A stretch of 64,000 nucleotides of DNA from a virus (taxonomy: Duplodnaviria; Caudoviricetes), in IMG/VR virus record IMGVR_UViG_3300005711_000021, positions 32,001 through 96,000 of that record; one strand, given 5' to 3'. Below the pieces are notes generated by a model. It was not told where the DNA came from, made no database searches, and was given only the letters and a program-made list of their open reading frames with translations. This document shows, one piece after another, positions 2 to 25,170 of this stretch. A program made the translations under genes and the position numbers. The stretch's first letter is position 1; the number at the start of each line of letters is the position of its first letter.

Positions 2-3000
2 GTATTTCAAATTGAGCATTCCCTAAATACAAATCCTAATGGATTTTTACGAAAGATGTATGCACAGGAAGAATTCATTCCTGGTATAAAAAGAGAATTA
101 CAAAATCGCTTATCAGATATAAATCCTAAAAGAGTTAATAATATAGTTGATAATATCTTAACGCATGTCTCTGATACATTAGAATATACTGAGGAAGCAC
201 TTCCTGATCATTATAAACTTTCTTCAAAGTTTAAAAAAGCTAATAAAGATGTTTTAAATGAAGAACAAATGTTAGACCTTGAAGAAGTTATTAGAGAAAA
301 CTTTATTAAAAAACGTGAAGAAACACAGCAGTACATTAATTCACATCAAGACCTATTAGAAAACTTAAAAGCTGAATTACTTGATTATGATGGACTTGCT
401 ACTAAGTTTGGTACAAAGAACAATCAGAGACAAAATATGATTGAACAAGCATTAGGAGATTCTCAAGTTACATTAAGAGAATTAGTAGAGAATGCAGATC
501 AAATAGAAAAAACAAATTTGATTTCTGAAGGTAATCAGAACCCAATGGATGTTCTTCAACGTGCAAGAGAGTTAATTGAAAAAGATTCAAGATACGGTGA
601 TTTATTTGTAGATAAAACATTAAGAATAGATGAAGATGGTAACATTAGAAGTTTTGCAGAAGCTGCTAATATTGGTAAAAAGTTTGAAACACAGTTTCTT
701 CATACTTTACCAGGTAAGCTATTAAAACCTTTAGAAACTAGAGCATTTAAAAATAGTGCTCCTAACTTTTATTTTTCTAGTAAAGGTAGTGTAGATTATT
801 TACTTCCTAAGCTATTAGAAGATAGAGAATCTACTATATTAGAGAACTCTTACTTTAGAATTAATGATAGAGGTTTTAGAGTTGCAGGAAATGAATTAAG
901 ACGTGAATCCAAAATGGATGATTTGTTTTTAACTTCAGGTACATATGGTTCTCATGTTAGGTTATATAAAAATATAACTGGTGACGTAGATTACTCAAGT
1001 GCTCCTAGAAGTTTTATAGCAGAAAAACTAGATATGGGGTCCACTCCTAAATTAAATGCTTTTGAAAATCTTAAGTTAAAATATAAGAAATTTAAAGATC
1101 CACAATGGACTCCTAATCTTATAAAAGATAAAATTAATAATCTATCTGCAGATCAATCAGCTGAAGATTACTTTGAAGACATGAAGGAAATTAATCGAAT
1201 CTTTAAACGTTCCACAACCAAGATGGATAAAACGACAGTTGCTCGATTAAATAACTTTAACTTGGATGAATCAACAAGAGAGATTTTTGATTTATTAAAA
1301 TTGGATGATGAAAATCTATTAAAATCTATTGCTTATATAAATACTGGAGGTACGACACAAAACTTCTTAAATGCAGACGCATCTTCATTAATTAATCGTT
1401 ACCAAAAAGATCCTAAAGCAGCTCGTTCACTTGTATCTATTTCAAAGAAGATAACAAATGTCGGGATGAATATGGAGTATACAAATGCTGATCATTATCC
1501 TGACCTTTTAAGAAAAGAACTTTCTAAAGAAGCATTCCTAAGATATAAACAAGCATTTGGCGGAGATGCTTTAATGAATATGCTTAATAGTGTGCCGTTA
1601 TCTAATGCACAACGTTCTAATGCTAAGAAACTTGCAAGTTGGGGTATTTTTCAAGAAGCAGGTGAAATCTATAATAAAGATATTTCTCCAAAGCAATTAG
1701 AAGAATTAACTAAATCAAAAACAAACTTACAAAGCTTATTTGCTTCAGAACTATCTAATGAATCCAATAAAGATAGATTAATGAAACAAGAGTTCCAAGA
1801 AGTTGTTTCTGCTATGAGTAAATCTGCTTCGACAATGTTTGATGAATCAGATGCACCATTAGAGCATTTAAATAAAATTGAAAAAGCTAATAGACCTGGT
1901 TCTCATATTTATGTAAGAAAAGGTATTTCAGCTTTAGATATTTTAAGTGATTTAAATAGCACAGAGAAATTAAAAGCTTTCGGAAAGCAATTTACTGCAG
2001 GAAGAAAGAATATGGAAGATTTCACGAGTTATTCATTCTATCCTTATTTTGGATTATTCCGTTTAACAGATGCATTACCTCACCTTGCATTCTCTCCAGA
2101 GAATACAGGTAGCGTAGGTGACTTAGCTAAAAATATTATGCTTAAACGTGTTATGCCAGTAATAGGTGCAGGTTATACATTAAGCTATTTAAATTATGAA
2201 TCTAAAAACTTTACAGGTAAAAGTTTAACAGAAGCGGCTATGGTTTCATGGTCTAACTTTGATTTAGGTGTTAGAACATTTATTGATAAAACACCTTTAG
2301 CTGAGTCTTTTAAAGATATGTATTATACAAATGATTTAGTTAATTATTATAATCCAGATCCATATCGTAATGTAGAAGAACAACGTGAATGGTACGAAAA
2401 AGGTGTAACACCTGTTCGTAAAGGACGTTGGTGGGGAATGTCTACATCTGAGTTTAGAGGAGGAAAGATAGAATACTTCGAACCTAACAAACTTAGACAA
2501 GTAAGTACACCGTGGAAAGATATAGGTGTTTATGGTTCTTCAGATGAAAAATGGAAACATAGTATTATTCCTACTTTAAGACATCCATTATCTCCTATTC
2601 GTTATTTAATGGATCCTTATTGGCTAGAAGAAAAAAATAAATTCTCTAGACCATATCCAATTACTGCTCCACTATTTAGTGAAGGTACACCATGGAGCGG
2701 TATTTTAAATATGACTGTTGGTAACGCTATTAAACCACAAAGAAGTATGCATAACGAAGTATTAGGTAATGACTTTACTGATGTAAGAGATTTAATTCTT
2801 CGTGAGAATGAAAGAATTAGAAAGAAAGATGCATTACAAGATAGATATGTCATGTTAACTGGATCTAGCTCTGCTACTGAAGAAAGACAATTTGATATGT
2901 CGGGCACACCTACCTTACAAGGTAGTCCAGTTATTCGTGGCGATAATATTGATTTATCTAATTTTAATAAACAAAGTGGTGTTTCTGCTCCTTATTCTGT

Positions 3001-5953
3001 TACAGCTAATACGCATAGAACAGATAGTAAAATTACAATACTAGATAAACTTGTTATGGCAACAATGGATACAGGAATGATTATGCCACAACTTGAAGAT
3101 ATTAATGCTCAAATTAAATATAAAGCATCTACTCGTGGTATGTCAGAAACGAATTATGCTAAACAATATGATTCATTAATAGCTGCTGACACAATAGATA
3201 TTGTTAGAGATAAAGACATTAGTGCTGAACTTAGAAATACAACTTCTACTAAAGAATACATAAGAGATATTGGTTATTCTGCAAAACAAATTAGTGGTAT
3301 TTATGGGTTCATGTTTGATGAATTAATTCCTGGCAAGAAACAACATATCTTAGCAAATGCATCTTCAATGAGTTCTTTCTCAAGAAGTTTCTGGGATGAA
3401 TCTTTAGGTGGCGTTGGTGGAGGATTCATGGAAATTGCTCGACGTTTCTTCCCTCATGCTAATCATGACAATATAGAAGTTAATCCAATTAGAAATAGTA
3501 TGCCATCATGGATGCCAGAAAGATTTAAACATGGTGATCCATATACTAAAGTTAAAAAAGGTGAAATGAGATTACCAGGTAGAGCTTATGAAGCGATGAA
3601 TCACTTTACACCTAATATTGATTTCTCTGTTCATCCTTATATGACAGGTGCTTCAAAAGAAGAGTTAACACAATACTATATTAACAAAAAAGATATGGAT
3701 GAGTATTTTAACTCACTTCCTATGCAAGAAATTAATTTATCTACTAAAGATGTTAAAAACCTGCAAAAGAATGCAAAAGCTGCACAAGATAATGTTCAAA
3801 AGCTATTAAGATCAGGAAAACTTAATAGCGGAGAATTCTATGATGATTTTCAACGTTTTAAAATATTAGCAGACGTTGCTCCTTATAGTTCAGAATACAA
3901 AAACTATAAATCAATTGTACAAAGTCAATTAACAGATGCGAACAAAAAAGAATACTATGATATTCTAGAACGTGTTAAAAAACAATCTACACAACATGAG
4001 TTTTATAATTATAGATATACTAAAAACTCTTTTGAAGAAATAGAAGGTTATGTAGATACAATCACAAAAGATGGTTTTACGTTAGTTGGAAGTAATAAAA
4101 CATATGCATTAGCAGGTGTTAAAACAACACAAGAAGGTATTAGTACACAACTTGCAGCGGGAGATAAAATCAGAATTAAAGTTGATGCATTAGATGCACA
4201 AGACGATTATTTAAAAGCTGTTGTCTATAGAGATGGTGTTAATATAAATCGTGAAATGATTCGAGATAAAACTGCTGAAAGAAGTTCTGATGGTTCAGCA
4301 ATAGATGCTCATGCAATTGCATCTAATACACAACGTCAGCTTGGAGCAATAGCAGAAACAATTGGACATTTACCTATTCCTATTATTCATAATAGATATA
4401 TGAAGTTAGAAACACCTTTAGAAGCATATAAAAGTGAACAAGTATATGGTACACCATATGCAACATGGTCTCACCCAATACAAGGATATATTCAACCAGC
4501 TTTTAATAAAGCAGTATCAGTTGGACCTATACATGCAGCTTTAGGTGCAACATCATTTGCAGCCAATGTTTTTATAGAAATGTCTAATACAAACTTTACT
4601 ACTTCTCATATGATAAGAGAAGCTGCTGAACTTGCTACAACTATAACTGGTAAAAAAGTAGCTGCAGAAACAGTTGCTAATAATATTACAAAAGCAGTTA
4701 AAATTTCTAATCTGTTAATTACACCAGGAGCAGCAACTGGAGCTACAATAGGTTTTGGTATTAAACTAAGTAATGAACATATAAATAAAGGAGCTATGAT
4801 TGGTTCTGCAATATGGAGTGCTGGATACTTAGTAACAAATGCTAATAACCCATTCTTGGCAGTTGGTGCAGGAGCCTCTATTGGTAAAATAGCAGGAGAC
4901 TTTTTAGAAACATCTGGTGGCAAAAAAGGAGCGGCAGTTGGTGCTGCAATAGGATTTGGTATTTCTTATTTAAGAAACCCTGACTTTAGTATAGAAGGCA
5001 TGAAAGAAAAATGGATACCAAAGAAAACTAAAAAACGTTGGGAAATGGAAGAATACTTTGATAGATTAAATTATATAAAATACAAAGGGTTGTTTGAAAA
5101 AGCATCCGAAAAAGCTCTTAAAAAAGAGGGTGTTAATATTAAACAATTAATACTTGAAATGGAAGAGAAAGAAGCAAAAAATGAAAAAGAAAAGGAAAAA
5201 TTATTAAAGTACAAACAAAAACTTGGTAATAATTATATTAGCAATACCGAATATGGTAAAAGCTTAATGAGACGTATTGACAGCCAGCTTACAGAAACAT
5301 TAGAGTCAAAGATTGTTACGGCGGGAGAGTATACAAAATCAGCAATAGCTTATAAACAAGCTATGGATTCAACAATCTATGGGCTCAAAGAAAATGCGTC
5401 TTGGGCACAAATCCTTAGAGCTTTACCTAAGAATGATAGAGATTTCTTCTTAGAGTTTGCTAAGGTAAAAGATGAAAAAGAACAAAATAAAATTCTTGCA
5501 ACTATTTCTCCTTATAAACGAAAAATACTTCAAAGTATTTGGGGTAGAAAAGTAGATAAACTAGAAAGTAATGAATCTTATTTTAGTTCTTATAAACTAC
5601 CTAATATGTTCTGGGAAGGTTGGAAGCCTAATGTGGACATGGATCAAATCCAAATGAAGACTATTGAGAATGAAGGTATGCTACTATCTGACTTTGGTTA
5701 TTATGATTCTAATAAATACGAACCTGGCTATAATGAAGTTTCTCCTATTAACAATTATCAACAAGATACTAGTTTACTTTCATTAAAAGCTAATTTATTT
5801 ACATCATTAAATGGTTTAGGATTGACAGGTGTAAATGTAAGCATTGAACCAAGTCAAGTCCCTGGTATTCAGATGATTGCAGATTTTGCTAAGATAACAG
5901 ATTATAGAATCAAGCAAAAAATCAATCAAACGTTTGGAAGAACATATTATTAA
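2..5953 (+). CDS. Giant virion protein, tape-measure/ejection-protein-like, with a degenerate SNase-like OB domain and C-terminal glycine-zipper hydrophobic segments (5' truncated)
   Basis: Frame is open from position 2, so the true start lies upstream of the window (track start 56). Mostly helical. Gly/Ala-rich hydrophobic repeats at ~4500-4970 (e.g. GAAVGAAIGFGISYL). Segment ~4034-4280 (YALAGVK...LKAVVYRDGVNINREMI) resembles a thermonuclease fold. Located in the tail/baseplate block. Confidence 0.6.
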   Translation, partial: VFQIEHSLNTNPNGFLRKMYAQEEFIPGIKRELQNRLSDINPKRVNNIVDNILTHVSDTLEYTEEALPDHYKLSSKFKKANKDVLNEEQMLDLEEVIRENFIKKREETQQYINSHQDLLENLKAELLDYDGLATKFGTKNNQRQNMIEQALGDSQVTLRELVENADQIEKTNLISEGNQNPMDVLQRARELIEKDSRYGDLFVDKTLRIDEDGNIRSFAEAANIGKKFETQFLHTLPGKLLKPLETRAFKNSAPNFYFSSKGSVDYLLPKLLEDRESTILENSYFRINDRGFRVAGNELRRESKMDDLFLTSGTYGSHVRLYKNITGDVDYSSAPRSFIAEKLDMGSTPKLNAFENLKLKYKKFKDPQWTPNLIKDKINNLSADQSAEDYFEDMKEINRIFKRSTTKMDKTTVARLNNFNLDESTREIFDLLKLDDENLLKSIAYINTGGTTQNFLNADASSLINRYQKDPKAARSLVSISKKITNVGMNMEYTNADHYPDLLRKELSKEAFLRYKQAFGGDALMNMLNSVPLSNAQRSNAKKLASWGIFQEAGEIYNKDISPKQLEELTKSKTNLQSLFASELSNESNKDRLMKQEFQEVVSAMSKSASTMFDESDAPLEHLNKIEKANRPGSHIYVRKGISALDILSDLNSTEKLKAFGKQFTAGRKNMEDFTSYSFYPYFGLFRLTDALPHLAFSPENTGSVGDLAKNIMLKRVMPVIGAGYTLSYLNYESKNFTGKSLTEAAMVSWSNFDLGVRTFIDKTPLAESFKDMYYTNDLVNYYNPDPYRNVEEQREWYEKGVTPVRKGRWWGMSTSEFRGGKIEYFEPNKLRQVSTPWKDIGVYGSSDEKWKHSIIPTLRHPLSPIRYLMDPYWLEEKNKFSRPYPITAPLFSEGTPWSGILNMTVGNAIKPQRSMHNEVLGNDFTDVRDLILRENERIRKKDALQDRYVMLTGSSSATEERQFDMSGTPTLQGSPVIRGDNIDLSNFNKQSGVSAPYSVTANTHRTDSKITILDKLVMATMDTGMIMPQLEDINAQIKYKASTRGMSETNYAKQYDSLIAADTIDIVRDKDISAELRNTTSTKEYIRDIGYSAKQISGIYGFMFDELIPGKKQHILANASSMSSFSRSFWDESLGGVGGGFMEIARRFFPHANHDNIEVNPIRNSMPSWMPERFKHGDPYTKVKKGEMRLPGRAYEAMNHFTPNIDFSVHPYMTGASKEELTQYYINKKDMDEYFNSLPMQEINLSTKDVKNLQKNAKAAQDNVQKLLRSGKLNSGEFYDDFQRFKILADVAPYSSEYKNYKSIVQSQLTDANKKEYYDILERVKKQSTQHEFYNYRYTKNSFEEIEGYVDTITKDGFTLVGSNKTYALAGVKTTQEGISTQLAAGDKIRIKVDALDAQDDYLKAVVYRDGVNINREMIRDKTAERSSDGSAIDAHAIASNTQRQLGAIAETIGHLPIPIIHNRYMKLETPLEAYKSEQVYGTPYATWSHPIQGYIQPAFNKAVSVGPIHAALGATSFAANVFIEMSNTNFTTSHMIREAAELATTITGKKVAAETVANNITKAVKISNLLITPGAATGATIGFGIKLSNEHINKGAMIGSAIWSAGYLVTNANNPFLAVGAGASIGKIAGDFLETSGGKKGAAVGAAIGFGISYLRNPDFSIEGMKEKWIPKKTKKRWEMEEYFDRLNYIKYKGLFEKASEKALKKEGVNIKQLILEMEEKEAKNEKEKEKLLKYKQKLGNNYISNTEYGKSLMRRIDSQLTETLESKIVTAGEYTKSAIAYKQAMDSTIYGLKENASWAQILRALPKNDRDFFLEFAKVKDEKEQNKILATISPYKRKILQSIWGRKVDKLESNESYFSSYKLPNMFWEGWKPNVDMDQIQMKTIENEGMLLSDFGYYDSNKYEPGYNEVSPINNYQQDTSLLSLKANLFTSLNGLGLTGVNVSIEPSQVPGIQMIADFAKITDYRIKQKINQTFGRTYY

Positions 5954-5982
5954 ATTTATTACAGAAAGGAGTGTGAAAGAGA

Positions 5983-6324
5983 ATGGATGTTGTAGCATTA
6001 TTAGACAATTATGGATTACCTATCGCAATGATTGCAGTTTTTATTGGGTTTACTATCAAAATGTATAATGATAATAATGAACAAAATTCACGTAGAGAAG
6101 AAAAAATGTATCAACAAAATCAAGAGAGAGAAGATAAACTTTATAAAACCATTGACGATGTAAATTCAATAAACAAAGAAATAAGTGAAACGAATAAGGG
6201 GCTAACTGAAACTAATAAGAAACTTACTGAGACAAACAAAGAACTTGTACAACAATTTAAAACAGAAGTTCTTATCATAAAAAATGACATTGAAGATATA
6301 AAACATGCAGTTTTAAAAAACTAA
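5983..6324 (+). CDS. BhlA/UviB-like holin
   Basis: 113 aa with a single N-terminal TM helix (YGLPIAMIAVFIGFTI), then REEK/REDK motifs and a coiled coil ending IKNDIEDIK. RBS AAAGGAG. Confidence 0.6.
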   Translation: MDVVALLDNYGLPIAMIAVFIGFTIKMYNDNNEQNSRREEKMYQQNQEREDKLYKTIDDVNSINKEISETNKGLTETNKKLTETNKELVQQFKTEVLIIKNDIEDIKHAVLKN

Positions 6325-6333
6325 TAAACATAA

Positions 6334-6362
6334 TTGACAGAAAGTTTGAAATGTGTTAATGT
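6334..6362 (+). promoter_or_regulatory. Putative SigA-type promoter for 6390..6602
   Basis: Perfect TTGACA (6334-6339), 17-bp spacer, TG-n-TAATGT extended -10 with a weak hexamer. Confidence 0.45.
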
Positions 6363-6389
6363 AAAATAAAAAAAACATGGGGGTACAAA

Positions 6390-6602: not shown

Positions 6603-6613
6603 GATACATATTT

Positions 6614-6647
6614 AAGAGCTCGCTAAATCTAGCGGGCTTTTTGTTTT
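6614..6647 (+). terminator. Intrinsic terminator
   Basis: AAGAGCTCGCTA-AATC-TAGCGGGCTTTT stem-loop followed by a T tract. Confidence 0.85.
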
Positions 6648-6692
6648 ATAGTTTATTTTAAAGAGTATTATAAAGATAGCGAGGTGAAATCC

Positions 6693-9600
6693 ATGAAGAA
6701 GAATAAACGTTATACATATAGCGACGAAGTTAGAAGTCGTCTTTTATTACAAAGAGACAAAGAAATTGACCAAGTCGCAAAAAATATATTAGTAAAAAAA
6801 TATGAAGATGAATTAAAAAAAGAATATCCTGATGCCAATGCAAAAGAATTAAAAAAGAAGATTGTTGATAAATATAAAAAAGAATATTATGACATACGTA
6901 GTAACATTATTGCTCCTTTGTATCATGATAAAGTTTCTGACATTATTAAGATTGGTAAAGAGTCCGTAATTATTAGTAATACCAAAAATTATAATCAAGA
7001 AACAACTTATGCAGAAAATACTAAACTTCCAGATATATATAAGAAGATAAGTATTAAATCTGATTTATTTGATGTTATGGAGAAGTATGGTACTTCGTAC
7101 AATAATACATCTAAAACACAAACAGGTTCTGCACTTATTTCAAATGTTATTGAATTTGATAAACTTAATTATTCTTATACAACTGTAAAAGCATCTCAAT
7201 CATTAGAACATGCAAATAAAGCTTATGAGTTCTTTAAAAAGTCTAAGAAATTTATGGCTTATGATTATGAAACAATGGGTGGTACAGATGAATTCGGATA
7301 TAAACGAGTAGATGCTTTAACAGAGTTTGCTTATAGTGTATTTGATAAAGAAAGTGGAAAATCCAAAACAGTTAGTACAATTGTTGGTTTAGATAAAAAA
7401 CAAGAAACACGTTTTAGAGAGCTTATTAAAAATGTAAATAGGGATGGCATTTCTTCTAATGAACAAGATGTCATCTATCGTCGTATCGGTTTGTATGGTC
7501 ATAAAAATACAAGCTTTATTAAAGATGCAGATGGAATGTATAAAGTTGAGAAGATGGCTGATCTTGAATATGGTCATAGATTCTCAGATGCAGATTTAGA
7601 AAGAGGTTTTAAACGCCTTAGAGATATTTATGAAGATCAAGCTAAGTTAGGTAAAACGACTGGTGGTCTTTATAAATGGCAAGAACGATATGCTGAAATG
7701 ATCGGTCTTATGAATAATAAAGATATGGCAGTACTAGACTACAATGGTGTTATTGCCGATAGACCTTGGCAAAATAAATTCTTAGCTACCATGGATTTAA
7801 ATGAATCTCAAAGACAAGAGTTTATGAAAATCGCTGGCATTAATGATATGTTCTTAGATACAACTAGTGAACGTTTTTATGATGTGCGTGTACATACTCG
7901 TTATGCTGCAAATAATGTAGGTTCAGAAGCTTACTATTCAACTGATGAAGCTAAAAAAAGATTAAAAGGGAACACACCATTCTCACAAGAAGGTATTACA
8001 AGAACACTCTTTGCAGAAGAATATGAAAAAGCAGGTGGTGGTGCTCATACTGCAGGATTCGATACACAACTCCTTGCAAAACTAGCAACAGATAAAAATG
8101 GTTTTGGAATGAATGGAGAAACATTTGTAGACCGTATTTATAGAGATGCAAACCTTAGTAAATCAGCTATTAATAGCTCTGTTAGAACTGGGAATTTAGA
8201 TTTGTTAATGGCAAATCAATCTGTTCAATTCTTTGGAGGCGGTAATGGTCCATTAAGTTATGTTTATGATCCAGTTAGTAAAAACTATAGAACAGCTAAT
8301 CAATATTCACTTGGAGAAACTGTATCTAAAGAATTTACTAAAGAAAATCCAATTAAACGTGGACGATTATATACATTAGATTTTGCTGGTCAAGTTAATA
8401 TGACAGATGAATGGGTAAAAAACATTGATGGTATCCATGATGAATATGCTCAGAAATCTTTATATGCTATTAAACTTAATCCATTCTTTGATGAAAAAGT
8501 AGCAGGTGCTCACCAGGGATTACGTGGTCATTCTGTAATGTTCTTTAATTCAAAAGAACAAATGGAAGCTACATTATCTAATATGACAAAGATAGGTGAA
8601 AGAGATTCTGCAACCAATCCTTTTAGATTTTTATCTGGAAAAGCAGGAGAAGAAGTAAGAGAAATGTTTACAACACATAACGTTGTAAATGGAAAAATTA
8701 TAAAAGGTGAATCTCCAGTATCTATTAATGAAATTATTACTAAAGCAACTTATGCTGATGTAAATGATACTGCTGCCAGAATGATTCGTGAAGACAGTTT
8801 CTCTAAAGCGATGAACTTCTCTCAATTCTATGATAAACTTAATGAATTTAATGAAGCTCCTGTAACAAAAAAAGAAGCAAATAATATTTTACTTCAAATC
8901 ATGCAATCTAAAGATAGAAAAATTTCTAAACGAGTTGCATCAGGTAAAGTACTAGAACTTTCATATGCTGATATTCAAGAAACATTAGGTTATTCATTAG
9001 ATAATGGAAAAACGCATAATCTGATTTCTAATACATTAAATAATCAAATGACAGCATTTGAATATATGTCTAGTCAGAATGAAGTATTCAAAGCTATTAA
9101 AAATCATTTCTATGAACAAGGTTATGATAGCGACCAATTCCAATTTAAGTTTGAAAACATCTTAAATCAATTAACAGAACAAGAGATTAATTCTATTACC
9201 AAAAATCCTCGTAAATCAAAAGAGTTCTGGAATAATGGAAAGCCAACTGAATTATTTGGAAAGGACTTAAATTATTTTAACTTTGATGTAAGAGATTTCT
9301 TTAGGGAGAGAATAGAGTCTCCTATACAAGCTTATAGCAAACCAATAATTGATGAAGATATATTAAGAATTGATTTGGGCCCAGGTAAAGAATATAACTT
9401 TGTTAATAACTTACTTCGTCGTACAAGTTATACAACTGAAATGAATGCTGCTCAAAAAAATAATGAAGGTATTACTCAACTTCGTAATTTCGTAAAGAAT
9501 GTTCAAGCAGATAAAAGCTATGGTGATTTATTTTCTCAATTCGATGATGCTAAGATTGCCTCTTATCAATCATCTGATATGTTTGCTAGTTCTATCATAC

Positions 9601-15278: not shown

Positions 15279-15313
15279 CGTTAATTTTGATAATAAAAAT
15301 AGGAGGATAAAAC

Positions 15314-18300
15314 ATGAGTCAATCTACTAATAATGCTTCAAAAATACTTGACGAGCTTTTAATTACATCTGAAGGTTACGTCCTAAAAGATGATGATTTT
15401 AGTTTACCTACAGATATGGATTTCTCTTCAGAAAGTTTTAGTGTAGACTTATACAACAAGTTAAATAATGGTGAATTAGATTTTCCATTATATTTAGAAA
15501 CACCATTTTCAACAAAACCAGGTTATTATGAAGATGAACGTGTTTTTATTGCAACAGCTGTTCCATATATCAAAAAAGCTATTAAAAAACATATACCTGA
15601 TAACATAAGAGCTTTAAATACAGCTGAGTCACATGAACAACTAAACTCTGATGACGGCGATACTGTTTACTTTATGAATGAAACTTTATTTTCAGGTGAA
15701 TCTGCTTTTATATTAGGTGATAGAGCATATGAAAACTTAGATGAGTTTTTAAATATTCAATCTAACAAAAACGGTAAGTTTGGTGTCCGTTTCCTAGGTA
15801 TAGATGCACCCGAAATTCCTCACTACATATCTACGCCAATGACATCTGGAGATATTCATAAATTTAAATTCGGAAAGATTAAAAACAAAAGTAACTTTGT
15901 TTTTTCTAAGTTTAAAATATCTGGAGAGTCTATTCTTGATAGAAATGATAATGATACAATAAGTTTTTTCTATGACTCAGAAAATGATACATATTATGAA
16001 ATAATTGAAGAACATTTTGCTCCAGGTTATTTAGATTTATCGGATGAAGAAAAGAAAAAAATAGAAAGTCTAAATGGCACAATCGGAAAAATCGTATATG
16101 TAGATGAGTCTAAAAAGACAACTGTTAAAAAAGGACTTGAAGCTGCAGAAACAGTTAGAGATATGGTTGGTAGAGCAGAAGAAATTTGTTTAATGTTAGA
16201 CCAACAAAGTTTAAATAGACAAACTAACCATTATGAATCACCTTATAATAATGATTACTACTCTTATAACTTCTCACATGCTTTAACACCATGGAATACT
16301 ATTAAAAACTATTGGAATAAATTTTTTAGTGATGCCCGTTATAAATATATGGGATTTAATGCATGGGGACAAGATAATAATAAACGTATGCTTGGAACTA
16401 TTTATTTAAAAGTAGTAGTACCTGAATTAGGTGAAGAAGCTGTTTGGATTAACTTATCTAAATATGTTCTTCAAAAGTTTCCTAAGGATGTAGAAGCATT
16501 ACCAGATTATACATCAGATCCAAAACAAAACTTACATAATGGTTTTTGTTCAAGTGCTTTTAAATTATGGACATATAACTTTACAGACCAAGTAATTCTT
16601 GATGCATTCACAACTTATACAGATGATTTTGTTGAAGAAAGAAATAAAATCTTTGAAGAACTTGCTGGAATGAGTATGAATGATATAAAAGAATATACGA
16701 TGATTTTAGGAGATAATGTTTTTATCGTGCCTCCAACATCTATTCGTTGTATGACTCAAACTCAAGCAGAAAGAGTACAGCTTTTACGTTCAAGAGGTTC
16801 TGCTACAAAGCAAGCTCCTATTTCTGAAAAGATGATAGAACTAAAACTTTATTTTAATAATGAAGATGGTATTAATGGTACACCATATGATGTAACACTC
16901 CCTAATGGACATAAAATAACTTATTGGATGAATGGATTAAGAAGTTTAATAGCTCAATTTAAATTAACACCGTTCTTACCTATTGAAAATAATTATATCA
17001 ATCAAGTGCTTAATGTATATGCAGTTACTTTAATGGATTTACAAGTATCTACAATGCCAGGTTTTCCTAAATGTTTACAAGTTACATTAACACTTCAAGA
17101 ATTTAATTATCATATTTATATGCCCGAATTACCTCTTCCTGAATTATTAAAAGAAGAAGATTTGTATATTAATATGTTTGCTAGATGTATTCATTATCCA
17201 GTAATGCGTTGGTACTATCAACGACTTCTTCAAAAAGGTGAAAAAGTTAAAAACTTAGCTTTTAATAGTAAAGAATATATTGCAGAAACATTCGGTTCTA
17301 ATACGGCACTTGTTCCAATGGATTTTAAAGATTCAGCAATTGAATTTTACTTACCAGATAAAAAACTTTTAGATAGACGTTTACAAGTTTTCCTTGCAAG
17401 AGAATCTAAACCTTTACGTTCTTCTTATGAATTAACAGATGACGGCAAAGAACTTATTAGACAAATGGCCCCTATCTATAATGATTTACTTATAAATAAA
17501 ATAAATAAAGACACAATTGCTTTAGGTAAAAAAATAACAGAAGTTTGTACAGTTGATTATTCAGGTGTTAAAGAATATTATCCTCATACTTTATTTGATA
17601 TTAAAACGAATTCTGCTGTTCTTGAAAATAATGATGTAGGTCAGTTTTACAAATACAAATATCAATTAGTCGGATCAGATAACAATATGTTATTTGGCTC
17701 ATCATTTGCAAATTACACATCAGAAACAGAAAACAGATTCTTTAAATCTGATTTTGGGATTGAACGTGTACAACCACCTATTGGAAATTTTGTAAGAGCT
17801 ATTGAATATGACAATATCCCAATTGATGATTATGATGGTAGAGCAAAAACAACAGGCTCTCCTTATGTATCAAAACATATATCTGACTACTTTAATAGCT
17901 TTACAGGTTTATCTAAATTTGGTGGTTACGAAGTAAAAGAAAGTATTGAAACATATGAAAATGGTAAAGAAGGACGATTTATTTTTGATGTATATGTTGC
18001 AATGCCACAAATACTTAAATCTCAAGTAGAAAGAGAAGAGTTTTTAAAAAATGTTATTACTCAATTAAAAGTAGATAATAATTCGGATATATTTGATTAT
18101 AATTCAGCAGGAGCATTATGTATTAAAATTCGATTTGCAATTCCTACACTTGTTTATAAAGTTAATCTTTATTCAAAAGAGGAACATATTGTTCATGTTG
18201 CAAATGGCGATATTTCATTAGACACATATAGTAATGGATTTGCATTTTTAGGATTTTGTGATCAAAACGTAAAAACTATTTATTTAGAAGATGGCACAAA

Positions 18301-21300
18301 AGAATACTTAGACTATACTGGAAATGCAATGGAAGATATGTCTGAAGATGCTATTGAAGCAAATAAATACAACTACCTAGAATCAGAAAACAGTATTGAT
18401 TTCAAGAAATATGATTTCGGCGAAGATATTAATATTCAATCTATCAGCTGTTCTTATTCAAATAGTTTAGCAAGAGTAAGACTAAATGCTATGGATGGTT
18501 ATGCACATCAATTCTGTGGCGGACAAGATTCTGTTATAGAGATTTCTATTACAACAAAGAATGAATCAGCAGCTTCATTACTTCAAAACCTACCTAGAAT
18601 TGCAGCAAGTTATGTTATTGATTATAAAGAAATTCTTCCATGTTGGCCACTTCGTATAAAGTCAGAGATTACAAAGCTATTTGGTATTAATGAAGTATTA
18701 GTTGAAGCAGTAGATTTATCAACTGTACCAAACTATCCAGGACTATATAGTATCACATTGAGAATGGTATCTGTAGATAGAAGTACTCGTAATAGAGAGA
18801 CACTTAAAAAACTTGAAGAAATTAATAATGCAGGTACTCTTGCAAATGATGCTAAAGGTGAATATATGCAAAATACATTCTTTGATTTAAATCGTGTATT
18901 AGGCAAAGCAGAAATTTATCCTGATTTAGAATTACCATTAGTAGATGAACTTGAATATGCTGGTTATAAGTTAACAAAATATTATAATCCAGAACAAAGT
19001 ACAAGAAAATATTTAGACCCAGATTTCTATTTTGTTTATGCTCATATTCTTACTCATGAGCTATTAAAATCAGCAATACAAAAAGGATTAGATGAACAAA
19101 AAGTAGAACTTGGTTTTGAACTTAATGATAAATTTGGAAGTTCATATTTAGTTAAAGAAAACACAGATACAGAATCCAATTTACCAATGTCTGCAGAACC
19201 CACAAATGATGTTGCAAAAGATATACAACAACAAGCAGAAGCTGCTTATTCAACTAAATATATAGATTCTGTTGCAGATACAATGAATAGAAGAGGATGG
19301 TTGGCTCTTGAAGAGAAATATAAATTATCTTCTAAATTACCTCAAACACTTGCAGGAATGAAAACACCAGTTTGGTCTATTACAGATAAGCTTGTCTTTC
19401 CATTAAGAGAAGAACAATACAAGTTAATTTATAATGGTAATGAAGAACAAGATAATATTTATCACCAACAAATTAAATCCCATGAAGATAAAATGTATTC
19501 TATTATAGATAATGAATTAAACTATCCAATTAACATGAAAGCAATCGGTATGGAAGAATACACTAAGAAAAATTTTCCTGGTGATCATTTAAGAGATAGC
19601 GAATCATTATTAAAGTGGGCAGAAAAACGTATTGGTAAATTCTCTAAACAATATGCTTATAATCGTTCATTCATTAATGAGTTGGCACATGATAATTTAA
19701 ATGATCCAACTGCTGTTAAAGTAAATGGATTAAAAGATATTCTTCTTGCTTTTGCAGATAGTGCTACAGGCTATGCATTTTGTGAAACTACAAAAGTCCT
19801 TGCAATAAATTTAGCTTCAACAAAAGATGATAAATATTCTGCTGTAAACTGGAAGCTTAAAATGTTTAATAATTATGGTGGACAAGTTTATAATGGAAAT
19901 ACTGTTAATTGGGATGTGCTAGAACCTTATTGTAAAACAAGAGGTAAGGACAGAGAGTTTGCAATGAATCTAGATGATGCGATTGAGAATGGTACATCAT
20001 TTGGTATTTATCAAATTCAAATGTATCCAAAGGCTGCTATTATTGATTTAATGTCAAGTGAATATGAAAAACAAAAAGTAATGCAAAGTAAAGTAGAGTT
20101 TGTTTTCTTAGATCCTTATTATAGATCGTTACAATTAGATGATCCTACAAGTGATGAATTAAAAGCTTATAAAATGAAATTATTACTTGACCCAGCATAT
20201 TGTGCGTATGCTTATATTAGAAATCTAATGGTATGGTATAAATATCTTCTAAAAGAAGAAATTGCTTTATCTATGTATGAAACCATTAAAAATGAAGCTG
20301 CTAGTAAAATAAAAGTTTCAATAGGAGATATCAATTCTTATGGTTACGGCAGCTCGGGAGAAACAATTAATAATTTCAAAGAAGATAAATTTGAAAAAGC
20401 TACTAATCAAACGTATAAAGAAGTTTTTACTCAACATGCAAAAGTATTCGCTATTGCCTATGCAGTCTTATACGATACTAAAAATAATAACCATCTAGCA
20501 ACGGAAACAGCTCTTGAAGAAGAAGGCGTTCCAAATGAGTTATTTAGTTATGTAGATAAATACAAAAACAAGACTGAAAAAGATTTAAAAGCTTTAGAAG
20601 TAGATATTAGAAAAGACTTAAAAAAGGAAAAAGAAAACAAAGAACACTCAGATGAAATCAAAGAAGCTTATATTAATAACTATAAACTTATGCTTTCTGC
20701 ATTAGGCTATGATGTAGATAATGATACCCATACAGAAGTTACATACGACAATCTTTTAAGATATGGTGTTGCTATTGTAGGTCAATATGAAACACAAAAA
20801 GAAGAATCTCGTATCAATAATCAAACTTTTAAAGAAATAATTGAACAACTTACTTCTGATAAAAAAGATATTATAAAAGGTAAATTAATAGGTCTTTCTT
20901 TATTACTTCTTAAAAATGGTGGCAGTGTTTTATCTGCAATGAGAAGAAGAGAAACTTATGAGCTAGATAGTTTAATGTTGAGTTTACCAATGCCAACAAT
21001 TAATGGCGAAAACAATGATTTAAGAAAATATGTTTTAGCATTAGATGGACGTGGCGTATTAAAATTAGAATATGTAGGTTCTTCTACTCAATCTGCAGAA
21101 TCGTTGGTTAAATTTGCAGCTTCAACTAGAATTAACATTAAAAAATGTAATAACATTCGAGAGTATCTAAAAGACTCATTCTTAGATATGATTAAATACG
21201 ATAAGCGAGGAAGAATGTTAAGAGCTTTCCCTACTTATTACATGTTATTTATAGATGAAGGACGTGATATTGGTTTATGGAAACTACATGATAACTTTTA

Positions 21301-24300
21301 TAATATGAATGCAATTTCAGAAATCACTATTACGAAATCTAGAAAAATAGCTGCTGATACAGCTCAAATTACAATGAGTAATATGTTTAAAACATTCTCT
21401 ACAGATGATGCACAAAAAGATTATGATGCTTCAGAAATCAATAATGTACGTTATAATATGAGAACTGCATTTAACTCTATATTCTCTCCTAGAGTATATG
21501 CTATGAAAGAAGAAGCATTAAGACAATTAGATGAAACACCTAGAGCTGCTCAAATAAATCCAGGAGTACGTGTTCATATTAGAATGGGATATGGAGCAAA
21601 TGCTGCCGATCTTCCTGTATTATTTAATGGTTGTATTGCTGAAGTAGGAACAACTGATCTTGCAGATATTGTTGCTCAAGGTGACGGTGTGGAGCTATTA
21701 AATCCAATAACAGATATTGATGATGCATCTGATGTTGAAAATAAAGAAAAATTCTTTATTGAAAAATGGGTGGATAATTGGCTCACAAATGGTGCAACAC
21801 CAAAACAAATCATGACTGCATTATTAATTAGTAGAGGAACATGGTTTCAAGAATTACTTCGTACTTATTCAAATGGTCGTTTCTTTAATAGAAATCCATA
21901 TGGTATTGTTCACTTTGGAGATCAAGAGTTTAAAGATATATTCTCTGCAGGTGAAGTTGTACAAAACATTTATGAAGCGAATCCAAGAGCTACTTATGGA
22001 GAACATGAAAAATACTCAGGCTTAGAAGCTTATTATGATACATTTAATACACCTGTTATTTCTATGCATTTATTAGGTAAAACATTTTGGGATGTTATGC
22101 ATATATGTGCATCTGTTCAACCAGATTATATTACAAGTGTTGTGCCTTTTGGCATGAGAAGTTCTATTTTTTATGGTGCTCCAAGATACTATTATGCATA
22201 TGATTATGCAGAAGAGAAATTAGATAATGGTGGAAGAATCATAAAAGAAAAACGTAAGCCATTCCAACAATATCATTTATATAGTTCATTTACAGATATT
22301 ATCCATAATAACATAAGAGCTTCTGCAAAAGAGATTAAAACAAATGCTGTAGGACTTTATCAAGAATCTCATCTGTTTGGAGATAAAGTAAAACAGGTAG
22401 GTCCACTCTTTGTAGATTTTGATATTTATCCAGAATACCAAAAGTCAATGACTGTAGATACACAGTTATGGGCAAAAGGTATGCCAGTTCTAGGTAATAT
22501 GTTTGGATTTACGGCTGATTTATCAAAAGATGTTTCTAATAAAGGATTTAATAAAATTCCTGGTGCAAAAGAAATTGCATGGCGTATGACAGCTTCAGCT
22601 TTAAAAAATTCTGTTAAAGATATGTATACTGGAGAGCTTACTGTCATAGGAGATCCAACAGTTAAACCATATGATAGAATGGTTATATCTGATGCTTATG
22701 AAAGAATAGATGGTCAATGTGAAGTAGAAGCAGTTGTTCATACATTAAATACTACAACAGGATTTACAACAAGTATTTATGCCGATTGTATTTCTATTGT
22801 AGATGATCAATACGAACAATATGCTAATATCTTCCTTAATAAAGTAATGGGTTATGCTTCAGCTTCATTAGCAGCAAACTGTATTGGTTTTGTATTTAAT
22901 AAACATGGTAGACCTATCGTTACTTCTCTTATTAAGATGACAACTAATGGAGTTGGAAAAGGTATTAACATTGCAAAGAATATAGAATCATTTTTAGGAA
23001 AAGATGATTTAGCAATTGTTAATAAGATTATTTCAGCTAATGATAAATTATTATCTTTTACAGGTCATTCTGTAGAATCAACTTTTTTATCTGTATTCAA
23101 AAATAGTTTAAAAAAGACAACATCTAAGTTAACAGCTTACTCTGGTTTAAATGTTGTTAGTGTTATTCAAGCAGATGATTATTTAAAGAACCTAGCTGCT
23201 ACATTAAATGAAATAGAAGATGGAACGATAAAGAAACAAATTACTAAAATAATAGCAAGTGAAAAAGACGATTTAGCAATTGCTAAACAAGCTCTTAGTG
23301 AATATAATGAACTAGCAAAACTAAAGAAATCTAGTATATCTCATTTATTAAAAGCAGATGATGATTTAATAAGTGCAATTACAAAACTAGCAAGTCATAG
23401 TCAATTAGATGATGCATCTAAAGTTGTGTTTAATCAGATAAGGTCTAATCCAGATTTCTTATCAGATACTAAAAACATTAATAGCTTTAGAAAAGCATTA
23501 GTAGCTAGTGAGAAATTAGGAGATGATGCTTTAGACGTAGCAAAAGCTCTTAAAAAGATTATGAATAACTCCGATGATATTGCAAAAGCCGCTTTAAGTA
23601 TGTCAGATGATGTTCTAAAAAAAGGTGGATTAAAAACTTTATTTACATCAGGTTCTGAAACTTTACTTGGTGGAATTGCAGCAACTGGTATTTGGCCCGC
23701 ATTAATTCTAATGGTATTAGAAATGGCAATAACAGCTTTAATCGGAGGTTATGCAACAGAATTTGTTTATCGTTATTTACAAAATCTAGAGGTTCTAAAA
23801 ATTTATCCACTTAAGAGAAAAGGTCGAGTAATGGTAGCTGGTATTGATGGACATAAAGGAGTAGTTGTAGGATCACCTACAGAAAATCAACAAGGTGAAT
23901 GGACTCAATTTGTTTCTTCATTATTTGATGGAGACAAAGGAGGGTTCGTTAAATCATGTATTAATTTCTTTATTGATGATGTTAATATTAATACGGCTGC
24001 AAAACGATTAAGAACAGATAATTATTTACCTGAGAAACAAGGTAATGTTAATAGTGACATCACTCTTGAATCTGTAAAACAAGCCATTGCTAAAGATATA
24101 AATTCAATCTACTCTAACAATGGTAAGTATAGTGCTAGAGAAGTTATGAAACTTGATAGAATTATGAACTTAAAAGATGAAAATGAATTAAAGAAACATT
24201 TAATTGATCCTAACTTTAAATCTGGAACGATGCCAAGTAAAAATGTAATATCACTAAGAACGAATCCAATTCAAGAGGATGAAGAAATCAAGCCATATTT

Positions 24301-24772
24301 AGAATCTAACTTTGCAAGTATTTTTACGGCTTCTCAATCAGGTTCTATAGAACCACTAAGTATTAACTTTAATGGGAAAGATGTAGATATGCAATGTTAT
24401 ACTGATTCTGGTGCATGGATTATTCCATGTTTAAGATATGATGCAATGCTATTATTAAAAGATTGCTTACGTATTTTATTTGAAGATAGTAATGTTGCAA
24501 ATTATAACAACGAAGAAAAGATTACACCTCATGTCTTTATAACTTCTGCAACGATTATCGGAGGAAAGGCAAGTTGGGAGAATACAGGTTATGCATTTAG
24601 ACTTCAACTAGATGGTTCAAAATATACTAAAGAAGATGCTTATAATTTTACATTAAGAATGAAGGAGTATCATGCTTCTATTGATGTTACTAATTATATG
24701 GAATGTTATATTATTCAAAAGAAGAAAACAGAAATATTATTTATTGTTAAACCTGTTGAAACTTATGAATAA
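15314..24772 (+). CDS. Giant virion structural protein: N-terminal thermonuclease (SNase) domain plus baseplate hub-like (gp27/GpD-type) region and a C-terminal hydrophobic segment
   Basis: SNase motifs DDGDTVY (~15650), VRFLGIDAPE (~15785-15814), GQDNNKRMLGTIY (~16366). Hub-like segments ISEITITKSRKIAADTAQITMSN, VHIRMGYG...VLFNGCIAEV...AQGDG and GELTVIGDPTVKPYD...EVEAVVHTLNTTTGFTTSI. RBS AGGAGG. Directly upstream of spike/gp25/J genes. Confidence 0.7.
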   Translation: MSQSTNNASKILDELLITSEGYVLKDDDFSLPTDMDFSSESFSVDLYNKLNNGELDFPLYLETPFSTKPGYYEDERVFIATAVPYIKKAIKKHIPDNIRALNTAESHEQLNSDDGDTVYFMNETLFSGESAFILGDRAYENLDEFLNIQSNKNGKFGVRFLGIDAPEIPHYISTPMTSGDIHKFKFGKIKNKSNFVFSKFKISGESILDRNDNDTISFFYDSENDTYYEIIEEHFAPGYLDLSDEEKKKIESLNGTIGKIVYVDESKKTTVKKGLEAAETVRDMVGRAEEICLMLDQQSLNRQTNHYESPYNNDYYSYNFSHALTPWNTIKNYWNKFFSDARYKYMGFNAWGQDNNKRMLGTIYLKVVVPELGEEAVWINLSKYVLQKFPKDVEALPDYTSDPKQNLHNGFCSSAFKLWTYNFTDQVILDAFTTYTDDFVEERNKIFEELAGMSMNDIKEYTMILGDNVFIVPPTSIRCMTQTQAERVQLLRSRGSATKQAPISEKMIELKLYFNNEDGINGTPYDVTLPNGHKITYWMNGLRSLIAQFKLTPFLPIENNYINQVLNVYAVTLMDLQVSTMPGFPKCLQVTLTLQEFNYHIYMPELPLPELLKEEDLYINMFARCIHYPVMRWYYQRLLQKGEKVKNLAFNSKEYIAETFGSNTALVPMDFKDSAIEFYLPDKKLLDRRLQVFLARESKPLRSSYELTDDGKELIRQMAPIYNDLLINKINKDTIALGKKITEVCTVDYSGVKEYYPHTLFDIKTNSAVLENNDVGQFYKYKYQLVGSDNNMLFGSSFANYTSETENRFFKSDFGIERVQPPIGNFVRAIEYDNIPIDDYDGRAKTTGSPYVSKHISDYFNSFTGLSKFGGYEVKESIETYENGKEGRFIFDVYVAMPQILKSQVEREEFLKNVITQLKVDNNSDIFDYNSAGALCIKIRFAIPTLVYKVNLYSKEEHIVHVANGDISLDTYSNGFAFLGFCDQNVKTIYLEDGTKEYLDYTGNAMEDMSEDAIEANKYNYLESENSIDFKKYDFGEDINIQSISCSYSNSLARVRLNAMDGYAHQFCGGQDSVIEISITTKNESAASLLQNLPRIAASYVIDYKEILPCWPLRIKSEITKLFGINEVLVEAVDLSTVPNYPGLYSITLRMVSVDRSTRNRETLKKLEEINNAGTLANDAKGEYMQNTFFDLNRVLGKAEIYPDLELPLVDELEYAGYKLTKYYNPEQSTRKYLDPDFYFVYAHILTHELLKSAIQKGLDEQKVELGFELNDKFGSSYLVKENTDTESNLPMSAEPTNDVAKDIQQQAEAAYSTKYIDSVADTMNRRGWLALEEKYKLSSKLPQTLAGMKTPVWSITDKLVFPLREEQYKLIYNGNEEQDNIYHQQIKSHEDKMYSIIDNELNYPINMKAIGMEEYTKKNFPGDHLRDSESLLKWAEKRIGKFSKQYAYNRSFINELAHDNLNDPTAVKVNGLKDILLAFADSATGYAFCETTKVLAINLASTKDDKYSAVNWKLKMFNNYGGQVYNGNTVNWDVLEPYCKTRGKDREFAMNLDDAIENGTSFGIYQIQMYPKAAIIDLMSSEYEKQKVMQSKVEFVFLDPYYRSLQLDDPTSDELKAYKMKLLLDPAYCAYAYIRNLMVWYKYLLKEEIALSMYETIKNEAASKIKVSIGDINSYGYGSSGETINNFKEDKFEKATNQTYKEVFTQHAKVFAIAYAVLYDTKNNNHLATETALEEEGVPNELFSYVDKYKNKTEKDLKALEVDIRKDLKKEKENKEHSDEIKEAYINNYKLMLSALGYDVDNDTHTEVTYDNLLRYGVAIVGQYETQKEESRINNQTFKEIIEQLTSDKKDIIKGKLIGLSLLLLKNGGSVLSAMRRRETYELDSLMLSLPMPTINGENNDLRKYVLALDGRGVLKLEYVGSSTQSAESLVKFAASTRINIKKCNNIREYLKDSFLDMIKYDKRGRMLRAFPTYYMLFIDEGRDIGLWKLHDNFYNMNAISEITITKSRKIAADTAQITMSNMFKTFSTDDAQKDYDASEINNVRYNMRTAFNSIFSPRVYAMKEEALRQLDETPRAAQINPGVRVHIRMGYGANAADLPVLFNGCIAEVGTTDLADIVAQGDGVELLNPITDIDDASDVENKEKFFIEKWVDNWLTNGATPKQIMTALLISRGTWFQELLRTYSNGRFFNRNPYGIVHFGDQEFKDIFSAGEVVQNIYEANPRATYGEHEKYSGLEAYYDTFNTPVISMHLLGKTFWDVMHICASVQPDYITSVVPFGMRSSIFYGAPRYYYAYDYAEEKLDNGGRIIKEKRKPFQQYHLYSSFTDIIHNNIRASAKEIKTNAVGLYQESHLFGDKVKQVGPLFVDFDIYPEYQKSMTVDTQLWAKGMPVLGNMFGFTADLSKDVSNKGFNKIPGAKEIAWRMTASALKNSVKDMYTGELTVIGDPTVKPYDRMVISDAYERIDGQCEVEAVVHTLNTTTGFTTSIYADCISIVDDQYEQYANIFLNKVMGYASASLAANCIGFVFNKHGRPIVTSLIKMTTNGVGKGINIAKNIESFLGKDDLAIVNKIISANDKLLSFTGHSVESTFLSVFKNSLKKTTSKLTAYSGLNVVSVIQADDYLKNLAATLNEIEDGTIKKQITKIIASEKDDLAIAKQALSEYNELAKLKKSSISHLLKADDDLISAITKLASHSQLDDASKVVFNQIRSNPDFLSDTKNINSFRKALVASEKLGDDALDVAKALKKIMNNSDDIAKAALSMSDDVLKKGGLKTLFTSGSETLLGGIAATGIWPALILMVLEMAITALIGGYATEFVYRYLQNLEVLKIYPLKRKGRVMVAGIDGHKGVVVGSPTENQQGEWTQFVSSLFDGDKGGFVKSCINFFIDDVNINTAAKRLRTDNYLPEKQGNVNSDITLESVKQAIAKDINSIYSNNGKYSAREVMKLDRIMNLKDENELKKHLIDPNFKSGTMPSKNVISLRTNPIQEDEEIKPYLESNFASIFTASQSGSIEPLSINFNGKDVDMQCYTDSGAWIIPCLRYDAMLLLKDCLRILFEDSNVANYNNEEKITPHVFITSATIIGGKASWENTGYAFRLQLDGSKYTKEDAYNFTLRMKEYHASIDVTNYMECYIIQKKKTEILFIVKPVETYE

Positions 24773-25156: not shown

Positions 25157-25170
25157 AGGGGGAGTATAGT

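Follow-up and report, generated by a model that had tools for sequence, protein, structure and literature searches.

The DNA described here, which will be called the window, is a 64,000-nucleotide (nt) stretch of the virus record IMGVR_UViG_3300005711_000021 (Duplodnaviria; Caudoviricetes), comprising bases 32001-96000 of one viral contig of 117,989 bp, whose completeness CheckV puts at ~50%. The first ~24.7 kb of the window are occupied by three co-directional giant open reading frames (ORFs) on one strand, designated G1, G2 and G3 (Table 1), and the middle one, G2, is predicted to combine a beta-prime-like RNA polymerase module with a DEDDh exonuclease-type domain in the position of a tail tape measure protein. 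Upstream of the trio lie genes for portal, protease, major capsid protein, a 958-aa (amino acid) sheath protein (phrog_16991, E 1e-61) and three tail-tube paralogues, while a gp25-like wedge protein (phrog_120) and a J-like protein (phrog_6) are encoded downstream of G3. With sheath and tube genes on one side and baseplate genes on the other, the trio therefore falls in that part of a contractile-tail gene block which encodes the tail interior and the baseplate. A first-pass annotation, made from the letters of the window, had given the sizes of the three ORFs and their placement in front of the spike, gp25 and J genes, and both are borne out in the full contig.

Table 1. Features of the three giant genes and of the genes adjoining them (positions are those of the window).
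Feature	Position	Strand	Remarks
G1	2..5953	+	giant virion-protein homologue; 2086 aa in full contig; true start 307 nt before window, 5' end open in window
Degenerate SNase-like (OB-fold) domain of G1	4040..4327	+	G1 residues ~1450-1545; catalytic residues unconserved
Gly/Ala-rich hydrophobic Gly-zipper repeats of G1	4520..4990	+	hydrophobic stretch at 4520-4577, further repeats to ~4990; region aligns with gp145
113-aa ORF in G1-G2 interval	5983..6324	+	phrog_9829 (unknown function), E 4.5e-10
G2	6693..15278	+	tape-measure slot; 2861 aa from ATG at 6693, 2864 aa if GTG at 6684
DEDDh (DnaQ-like) exonuclease-type domain of G2	7236..8093	+	assigned from motifs
Candidate beta-like half (second barrel) of G2	11001..12383	+	invariant residues; AF2 model of low confidence here
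Beta-prime-like RNA polymerase module of G2	12651..14543	+	clamp-core-like region, double-psi barrel and following helices; AF2 model
DYDGD metal-binding motif	13647..13661	+	G2 2322-2326; R2284-x-P2286 lies 38 residues upstream
Gly/Ala-rich transmembrane-like helix of G2	14895..14970	+	G2 residues 2738-2762; conserved in family consensus
Conserved C-terminal motif of G2	15081..15275	+	GYxVNV...MNI...; common to 0305phi8-36 gp146
G3	15314..24772	+	baseplate hub (by homology), 3152 aa
SNase-like motifs at G3 N-terminus	15626..16468	+	DGDT, RFLGIDAPE, KRxLGxIY; two large insertions
Core hub region of G3	21185..22795	+	homologous to gp147, which holds a T4 gp27-like domain
Hydrophobic transmembrane-like segment of G3	23657..23768	+	flanking block conserved in G3 family and gp147
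Downstream baseplate genes	24788..27750	+	122-aa ORF in gpV-like position, 410-aa M23 peptidase, gp25-like, J-like

The evidence for a polymerase in G2 comes from structure prediction and from conserved residues. A first AlphaFold2 (AF2) model of residues 1501-2700, built from 8 sequences, was too poor (predicted local distance difference test, pLDDT, 57.6) and its best Foldseek matches, to beta-prime subunits, were weak (E 0.02); the second model, of residues 1990-2620 and built from 30 diverse sequences, reached a pLDDT of 83.6. When the second model was compared with the PDB using Foldseek, 336 matches were obtained at E<=1e-3, and all 50 of the 50 matches listed were RNA polymerase complexes, the top one with E 1.5e-6 and probability 1.0. 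VIA-align, which is independent of Foldseek, placed RNA polymerase largest subunits in all of its top 13 positions (Z 8.4-10.3), including those of the phages AR9 and phiKZ, of Pol I, II, III and IV, and of the M. tuberculosis, vaccinia, archaeal and African swine fever virus enzymes, and single double-psi barrels ranked after them. The alignments with Pol IV and vaccinia Rpo147 start at the barrel and continue until the model ends (root-mean-square deviation ~4 Å over ~228 residues), and the similarity therefore exceeds the barrel. The matches of the model in BFVD are viral RNA polymerase beta-prime, Rpb1 and LEF-9 proteins. At the level of residues, R2284, P2286 and D2322/D2324/D2326 are invariant in an alignment of 62 sequences, an arrangement comparable to R446/P448/D481 of Rpb1 (PMC2919709). 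The model thus indicates that G2 contains a beta-prime-like RNA polymerase fold, in keeping with the RNA polymerase domain proposed in the first-pass annotation, and polymerase activity is presumed.

Two-barrel polymerases also need a beta-type barrel that provides two lysines and an acidic residue (PMC2919709; PMC7824862), and a candidate for it precedes the beta-prime-like module in the same chain. In the alignment of G2 homologues, K1600 and K1608 are invariant and exactly 8 residues apart, and E1448, a Glu rather than an Asp, is nearly invariant and lies ~150 residues upstream of them. The counterparts in Rpb2 are K979 and K987, likewise 8 residues apart, and D837, 142 residues before K979 (PMC2919709). 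E1607, E1677 and H1706 of G2 are also invariant, and an ESM Atlas look-up with residues 1301-1990 gave a weak lead to LPD38 (score 0.85). Residues ~1440-2620 of G2 would on these grounds form a single chain in which a beta-like half is followed by a beta-prime-like half. The distribution of polymerases among relatives of the phage supports an active enzyme. In phage KLEB27-3 and in two complete IMG/VR genomes (G001 and G002) the G2-type module is present and no polymerase resembling gp99, the YonO-type enzyme of phage 0305phi8-36, was found, in what is a small sample covered by searches of limited sensitivity, while conversely 0305phi8-36 encodes gp99 and its slot protein, gp146, lacks DxDGD. 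The polymerase region of G2 and gp99 have no similarity by BLASTP.

The exonuclease-type domain near the N-terminus of G2 contains the motifs ExoI (DxE), ExoII (NxxxxD) and ExoIII (HxxxxD) in order. The residues D194/E196, N354/D359 and H455/D460 constitute a complete DEDDh set and are invariant in 17 diverse homologues (~20-44% identity), and the motifs align in order with those of E. coli DnaQ, with weak hhalign statistics (P 0.024 and 0.19). Profile matches are also weak, namely to the exonuclease region of Pfu PolB (E 0.076) and, in one member, to Rv2179c-like proteins (E 0.033). The exonuclease that had been proposed for G2 in the first-pass annotation is thus upheld by its residues, with weak profile statistics, and G2 is predicted from these motifs to have exonuclease activity. 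Between this domain and the candidate beta-like half lie ~900 residues (~520-1440, window ~8240-11000) with family-conserved motifs (ND.AAR..R, L...R...P..G and N..RP...Q) and no recognisable fold or family.

Close homologues of G2 are few, only five having been found among 5.8 billion clustered proteins, and searches by megablast and tblastn against 50,697 phage records gave no match. A three-sequence profile of residues 2030-2650, run against 1.84 billion representatives, defined a rare family of 88 cluster representatives. Most of the 88 have 2500-3300 aa, with the match at the same C-proximal place, and 62 are giants. The motif DxD[GS]D occurs in 62/62 giants and DxET lies within the first 400 residues in 58/62. 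A cultured phage also provides a member, gp034 of KLEB27-3 (OM634661), which matches the G2 family by hhalign in the polymerase region (probability 96.9%, E 1.7e-10), where its DYDGD is at residue 1933, and in the exonuclease region (probability 85%), and which has the C-terminal membrane helix and occupies the same slot before the hub. It differs from G2 in being shorter (2434 aa) and very divergent, with no BLASTP match to G2; it is annotated only as 'structural protein', and the G1 orthologue of its phage is split. Because KLEB27-3 is a cultured phage, it is a natural test system for the properties proposed for G2. No description of the G2 family was found in the searchable literature, which is no proof that none exists.

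The slot protein of Acinetobacter phage ME3, ME3_36, was considered as a further member and rejected, as it lacks DxDGD and has no hhalign match. Among the viral structures in BFVD, the G2 polymerase model has its second-best match (E 2.2e-6) in an uncharacterised protein of the same phage, A0A172Q021_2. This protein is probably the product of another gene, since ME3_36 lacks DxDGD, and ME3 may, judging from the model comparison, encode an unannotated beta-prime-like polymerase elsewhere. The model also matches A0A8S5SD80_1 in BFVD (E 4.8e-4, probability 1.0), a 'minor tail protein' of the uncultured Siphoviridae sp. ctnpt50, which by the same structural comparison may be a further polymerase fused to a tail protein.

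The three giant genes form a module that recurs in other large phages. The order of a G1-like gene, a slot protein gene and a hub gene was found in seven other records, these being the Bacillus phages 0305phi8-36 and vB_BauM_KLEB27-3, Moorella phage MTATph1, Acinetobacter phage ME3, the two complete IMG/VR genomes (240 kb each) and one 158-kb metagenomic contig, and the linkage of the three genes, by which the first-pass annotation had proposed to judge its reading, is therefore retained. The relatives have Bacillus, Moorella and Acinetobacter as hosts, and the host of the phage in the window may, as the first-pass annotation had it, be Gram-positive. A scan of genome contigs for relatives found none. 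One of these phages is 0305phi8-36 (GenBank EF583821), in which the tube paralogues are followed by two tail chaperonins, gp145 (1930 aa), gp146 (2537 aa, 'hypothetical tape measure protein'), the baseplate hub gp147 (1903 aa), and gpV-like and gpJ-like proteins; gp145 and gp146 were both detected in virions by mass spectrometry (GenBank notes). The trio as such is not new, because the gp145-147 module was described in 2007. The module occupies the same place in both phages, and the genes downstream of the trio were compared in order with gp148-gp151. G1 matches gp145 by BLASTP over three long regions (E 5e-63, 2e-45 and 2e-35), as well as MTATph1 CDS0026 and KLEB27-3 gp031 and gp033, while G3 matches gp147 with E 4e-65 and 1e-25. 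Likeness between G2 and gp146 is confined to the last ~150 residues, including the membrane helix and the GYxVNV motif (BLASTP E 1e-4; hhalign E 0.0023), and the slot proteins of lineage members were reported by Hardies et al. to be alignable only over the last 60 residues (PMC2147016). gp146 has in common with G2 the position, the C-terminal motif and a DEDD-type motif, but its DIETTG motif lies in the middle of the protein. In every relative, as in the window, the gene in the slot of G2 lies between the tail tube/chaperone genes and the hub gene, which is the tape-measure position.

Variants of the module were seen in two of these phages. In KLEB27-3, whose homologues of the module are annotated as 'structural protein' (GenBank OM634661), the G1 orthologue is divided into gp031 (1340 aa, N-terminal part) and gp033 (677 aa, C-terminal part), both annotated structural (positions 935-8088 of the examined region). 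In MTATph1 the slot gene encodes just 1309 aa with a retained DLETT motif of the exonuclease type, and between it and the hub gene lie a transposase gene and three short ORFs (positions 8934-16290 of the examined region), so that the slot gene looks like one interrupted by an insertion element.

G3 is, on the evidence of homology, the baseplate hub. It belongs to phrog_20474 (E 4.7e-191), its C-terminal part is related by tblastn to the hub genes of MTATph1, ME3 and the Bacillus phages KLEB27-3, Edson, WH1 and 0305phi8-36, and the homology of gp147 to gp27 has been reported (PMC2147016). Pfam scans of 16 G3 homologues gave DUF6046 in 9/16 and otherwise isolated weak matches. As a hub, G3 is not free cargo, whereas the first-pass annotation had taken all three giants as a candidate injected apparatus. 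The residues D114, G115, D116, T117, R159, G162, P166, E167, R358, L360 and Y364 in its N-terminal SNase-like region are invariant in 24 homologues, and these include the counterparts of SNase R35, E43 and R87, while the position of Asp40 is Asn in most. The SNase described as intact-looking in the first-pass annotation is a motif-level call. The corresponding N-terminal place of gp147 is taken by another domain, which GenBank notes describe as peptidoglycan-degrading, so the N-terminal domain of G3 is an exchangeable tip module. In G1 itself, a block with an SNase-like strand pattern gives no match to PF00565, and at the aligned place this family reaches 19.6 bits in the orthologue from G002 and 19.1 bits in that from G001, below the cut-off of 21. 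The positions of SNase R35, D40, E43 and R87 are unconserved in this block. The domain was thus rightly described as degenerate, and because it lacks the catalytic residues the delivery of a nuclease by G1 is unlikely.

Each of the three giants also has a C-proximal Gly/Ala-rich hydrophobic segment, and the coordinates obtained by a hydropathy scan (Table 1) agree with those of the first-pass annotation. The repeats of G1 match the Pfam family Gly-zipper_YMGG with E 0.0026, under the family cut-off, and the transmembrane-like segments of G2 and G3 are conserved across their respective families.

To our knowledge, virion RNA polymerases linked to a tape measure have so far been described in a single small group of Thermus siphoviruses. 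In phage P23-45 of this group, the tape measure protein gp96 (5002 aa) begins with a two-barrel polymerase that transcribes the pre-early genes (PMC10770324; PDB 8H2M/8H2N), and this polymerase was found by a search for DxDxD in virion proteins (PMC10770324). Like G2, gp96 is a giant in the tape-measure slot that has transmembrane segments and a DxDGD polymerase unseen by sequence HMMs (hidden Markov models), of two barrels in gp96 and probably also in G2, and the role proposed is likewise the transcription of the first genes during DNA entry. In VIA-align the G2 model matches gp96 with Z 7.7 and 6.9 (8H2M and 8H2N), lower than multisubunit beta-prime, and hhalign sets the RxP...DxDGD of the G2 family on gp96 residues 723-787 (P 0.008, around the motif only). 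The two systems also differ, in that P23-45 is a non-contractile siphovirus of a Gram-negative-type thermophile and its polymerase is N-terminal, followed by ~3800 aa of tape with a metallopeptidase, whereas the polymerase of G2 is C-proximal, structurally nearer to multisubunit beta-prime, accompanied by a DEDDh exonuclease and two adjoining giants, and encoded by a contractile-tailed phage. There is no sign that G2 and gp96 are orthologues.

The first-pass annotation had likened the trio to the ejected proteins of crAss-like phages, whose gp66 (PDB 6VR4) is, as is proposed for G2, a single-chain two-barrel polymerase in a giant virion protein delivered with the DNA. These phages are podoviruses in which the polymerase is cargo of the capsid, whereas the gene context of G2 is a tail block, and the tape-measure-fused gp96 is the better analogue (PMC10770324). 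Proteins of crAss-like phages match the G2 model weakly in BFVD (E 0.01-0.02), well behind the beta-prime-type enzymes. Beta-prime-like modules of large phages belong to the strongest structural matches of the G2 model (Z 10.3 and 9.7), and one set of these enzymes is packaged in virions, but each such enzyme is divided into several subunits, its genes lie away from the tail block, and it has no fusion to a tail protein, exonuclease or membrane helix. Two things were known before, namely the trio module (0305phi8-36, 2007) and the linking of a virion polymerase to a tape measure (P23-45, 2024). What appears to be new is a distinct and fairly widespread family in which a beta-prime-like polymerase and a DEDDh exonuclease lie in the tape-measure slot of contractile-tailed large phages, and also the recognition of a cultured member in KLEB27-3 gp034.

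Taken together, the explanation that we regard as probable, with considerable room for doubt about the whole, is that the three giants are a conserved tail-interior and baseplate-hub module of a 0305phi8-36-like lineage of large contractile-tailed phages, with G2 as its enzyme-bearing slot protein. As a protein in the tape-measure slot that contains a predicted RNA polymerase and exonuclease, G2 is probably injected to start viral transcription. Packaging, ejection and insertion into the membrane are inferred, as is the conduit that the first-pass annotation had proposed. The order of elements in G2 would be the DEDDh exonuclease, ~900 aa, a beta-like part with two invariant lysines, a beta-prime-like part with RxP...DYDGD, the membrane helix and the short C-terminal motif. 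G2, and probably also G1, would lie in the lumen of the tail tube, with the C-terminal motif of G2 near the hub. Upon contraction of the sheath, the G3 hub would open the way and G2 (probably with G1) would exit ahead of the DNA. The hydrophobic segments, in G2 the one Gly/Ala-rich helix, would then anchor the ejected proteins in the cytoplasmic membrane, and the Gly-zipper segments may let G1 join a membrane channel. The polymerase of G2 would transcribe the first genes of the entering genome, as gp96 of P23-45 has been shown to do. A bolder version holds that G2 is a complete single-chain beta/beta-prime-type polymerase coupled to a DEDDh exonuclease, is held in the lumen of a contractile tail, is injected ahead of the DNA and serves in this lineage as the sole RNA polymerase of the phage, replacing the YonO-type enzyme that 0305phi8-36 has kept; this we put forward tentatively, as more doubtful than not.

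Several observations weigh against this explanation. Its support for this phage is drawn from sequence and predicted structure. No HMM or profile detects an RNA polymerase, exonuclease or SNase at significance (Pfam, family profiles and hhalign). Standard Pfam and PHROG scans of the three giants named no enzyme domain, phmmer searches with each giant against PDB sequences gave nothing relevant, Pfam scans of 17 G2 homologues gave isolated weak matches only, and neither Pfam RdRP (PF05183) nor Rpb1 domain 2 (PF00623) was matched in the genome of the window, G001 or G002. Profiles of the G2 family found no RNA polymerase among PDB sequences, and comparing the family with E. coli RpoB and RpoC by hhalign gave no significant match; the same blindness of sequence methods has been reported for other divergent phage polymerases (PMC10770324). 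The SNase of G3 was matched neither by PF00565 nor by any PDB profile. The TM-scores of the G2 model to beta-prime are low (0.13-0.18), which points to a different overall domain arrangement, and the beta-like barrel is argued from invariant residues in a region where the model is of low confidence. As the contig represents about half of a genome, another polymerase may be encoded outside it. Finally, G2 looks globular and enzyme-rich throughout and for this reason may not be a length-determining tape measure at all, and the label of gp146 as a tape measure is itself 'hypothetical', derived mainly from a correlation with tail length (PMC2147016).

These points bear on the alternatives to different degrees. 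If the module were purely structural, with G1 an internal tail protein, G2 the tape measure and G3 the hub, the enzyme-like folds would be relics or scaffolds that have no catalytic role after infection. The loss of catalytic residues in the SNase-like domain of G1, the fact that gp146 of 0305phi8-36 manages without DxDGD, the status of the second barrel as a candidate in a low-confidence model and the failure of any HMM to recognise the enzyme domains would all fit. Yet DxD[GS]D is retained by every one of the 62 giants, and RxP, the lysine pair and the DEDDh residues are invariant at only ~20% identity, a pattern typical of selection on catalysis, and relatives with the module lack a separate YonO-type polymerase, so that we consider the purely structural account unlikely. 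An active polymerase might also not be injected and instead function late in the producing cell, for late genes or DNA packaging, or be packed in the head rather than the tail. G2 is globular, unlike a helical tape, its location in the virion is inferred for this phage, and the virion polymerases of crAss-like and N4-like phages travel in the capsid (PMC10770324). Here the position of the gene, flanked in every relative by tail chaperone/tube genes and by the hub gene, argues for the tail, as do the annotation of the KLEB27-3 homologue as structural and the C-terminal motif and membrane helix that G2 has in common with gp146, a virion protein by mass spectrometry, and a polymerase that stays behind or travels in the head is judged decidedly unlikely.

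Far less probable still is that the double-psi barrel with its three Asp residues is a cell-wall-degrading domain of the 3D/RlpA/expansin-like type and no polymerase. Tape measure and hub proteins of Gram-positive phages often have lytic domains, and the model is matched at Z 6-8 by single double-psi barrels, those of expansins among them. RNA polymerase largest subunits nevertheless come first in both Foldseek and VIA-align, covering model residues 25-631 including the clamp-core-like and post-barrel helices, and the 38-residue spacing of RxP...DxDGD is the beta-prime signature. The reading of G2 as an injected polymerase in a conserved tail module is thus preferred, each of these three alternatives being less likely. 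A separate question concerns the SNase-like domains, above all that of G3, which might not be directed against intracellular nucleic acid and might act outside the cell (for example on the DNA of biofilm matrix) or be binding or structural OB folds at the tail tip. Since G3 is the hub, its domains would be at the tail tip, and Asn replaces the Asp40 of SNase in most G3 homologues, both of which suit this possibility, while the invariance of the residues matching SNase R35, E43 and R87 speaks for a nuclease; an extracellular or structural role has a minor but real chance of being correct.

The findings indicate a second, apparently unrelated case of a tape-measure-linked polymerase, represented by a family of ~60 sequence clusters from large phages with contractile tails. 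Should G2 prove to be active and injected, sending a polymerase through the tail would be a strategy that recurs and no mere curiosity. It would also show by what means certain jumbo phages begin transcription independently of the host enzyme, and it would raise the question of what a DnaQ-type exonuclease does beside an RNA polymerase. Were the complete single-chain version true, G2 would be without precedent in two ways, as a polymerase delivered through the tail of a myovirus and as a two-barrel RNA polymerase that has a DnaQ-type nuclease built in. Database labels are corrected as well, the hub having been called 'endolysin' and the slot protein 'hypothetical tape measure' or 'structural protein'.

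Among the neighbouring genes, the 410-aa protein encoded downstream of G3 has matches of the M23-peptidase type to several PHROG endolysin/peptidase families (~E 1e-18). The three consecutive tail-tube paralogues upstream (226, 925 and 322 aa, genome 25929-30412), of which the 925-aa protein has a long extension, all match phrog_9206, whose PHROG name 'major head protein' is a mislabel. A 688-aa ORF at genome 98575-100641 corresponds to only the C-terminal two thirds of the DNA polymerase III alpha subunit (NTPase end, finger and HHH), and this gene is possibly interrupted, like its counterpart in 0305phi8-36, which an intron splits. The interval between G1 and G2 is larger in the metagenomic relatives L005 and L006 (a gap of ~840 nt). 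In the window, a terminator-like 12-pair hairpin followed by a T-run lies at 6614-6641 on the + strand, inside the 360-nt gap between the 113-aa ORF and the start of G2, and transcription between G1 and G2 may be attenuated by this predicted hairpin.

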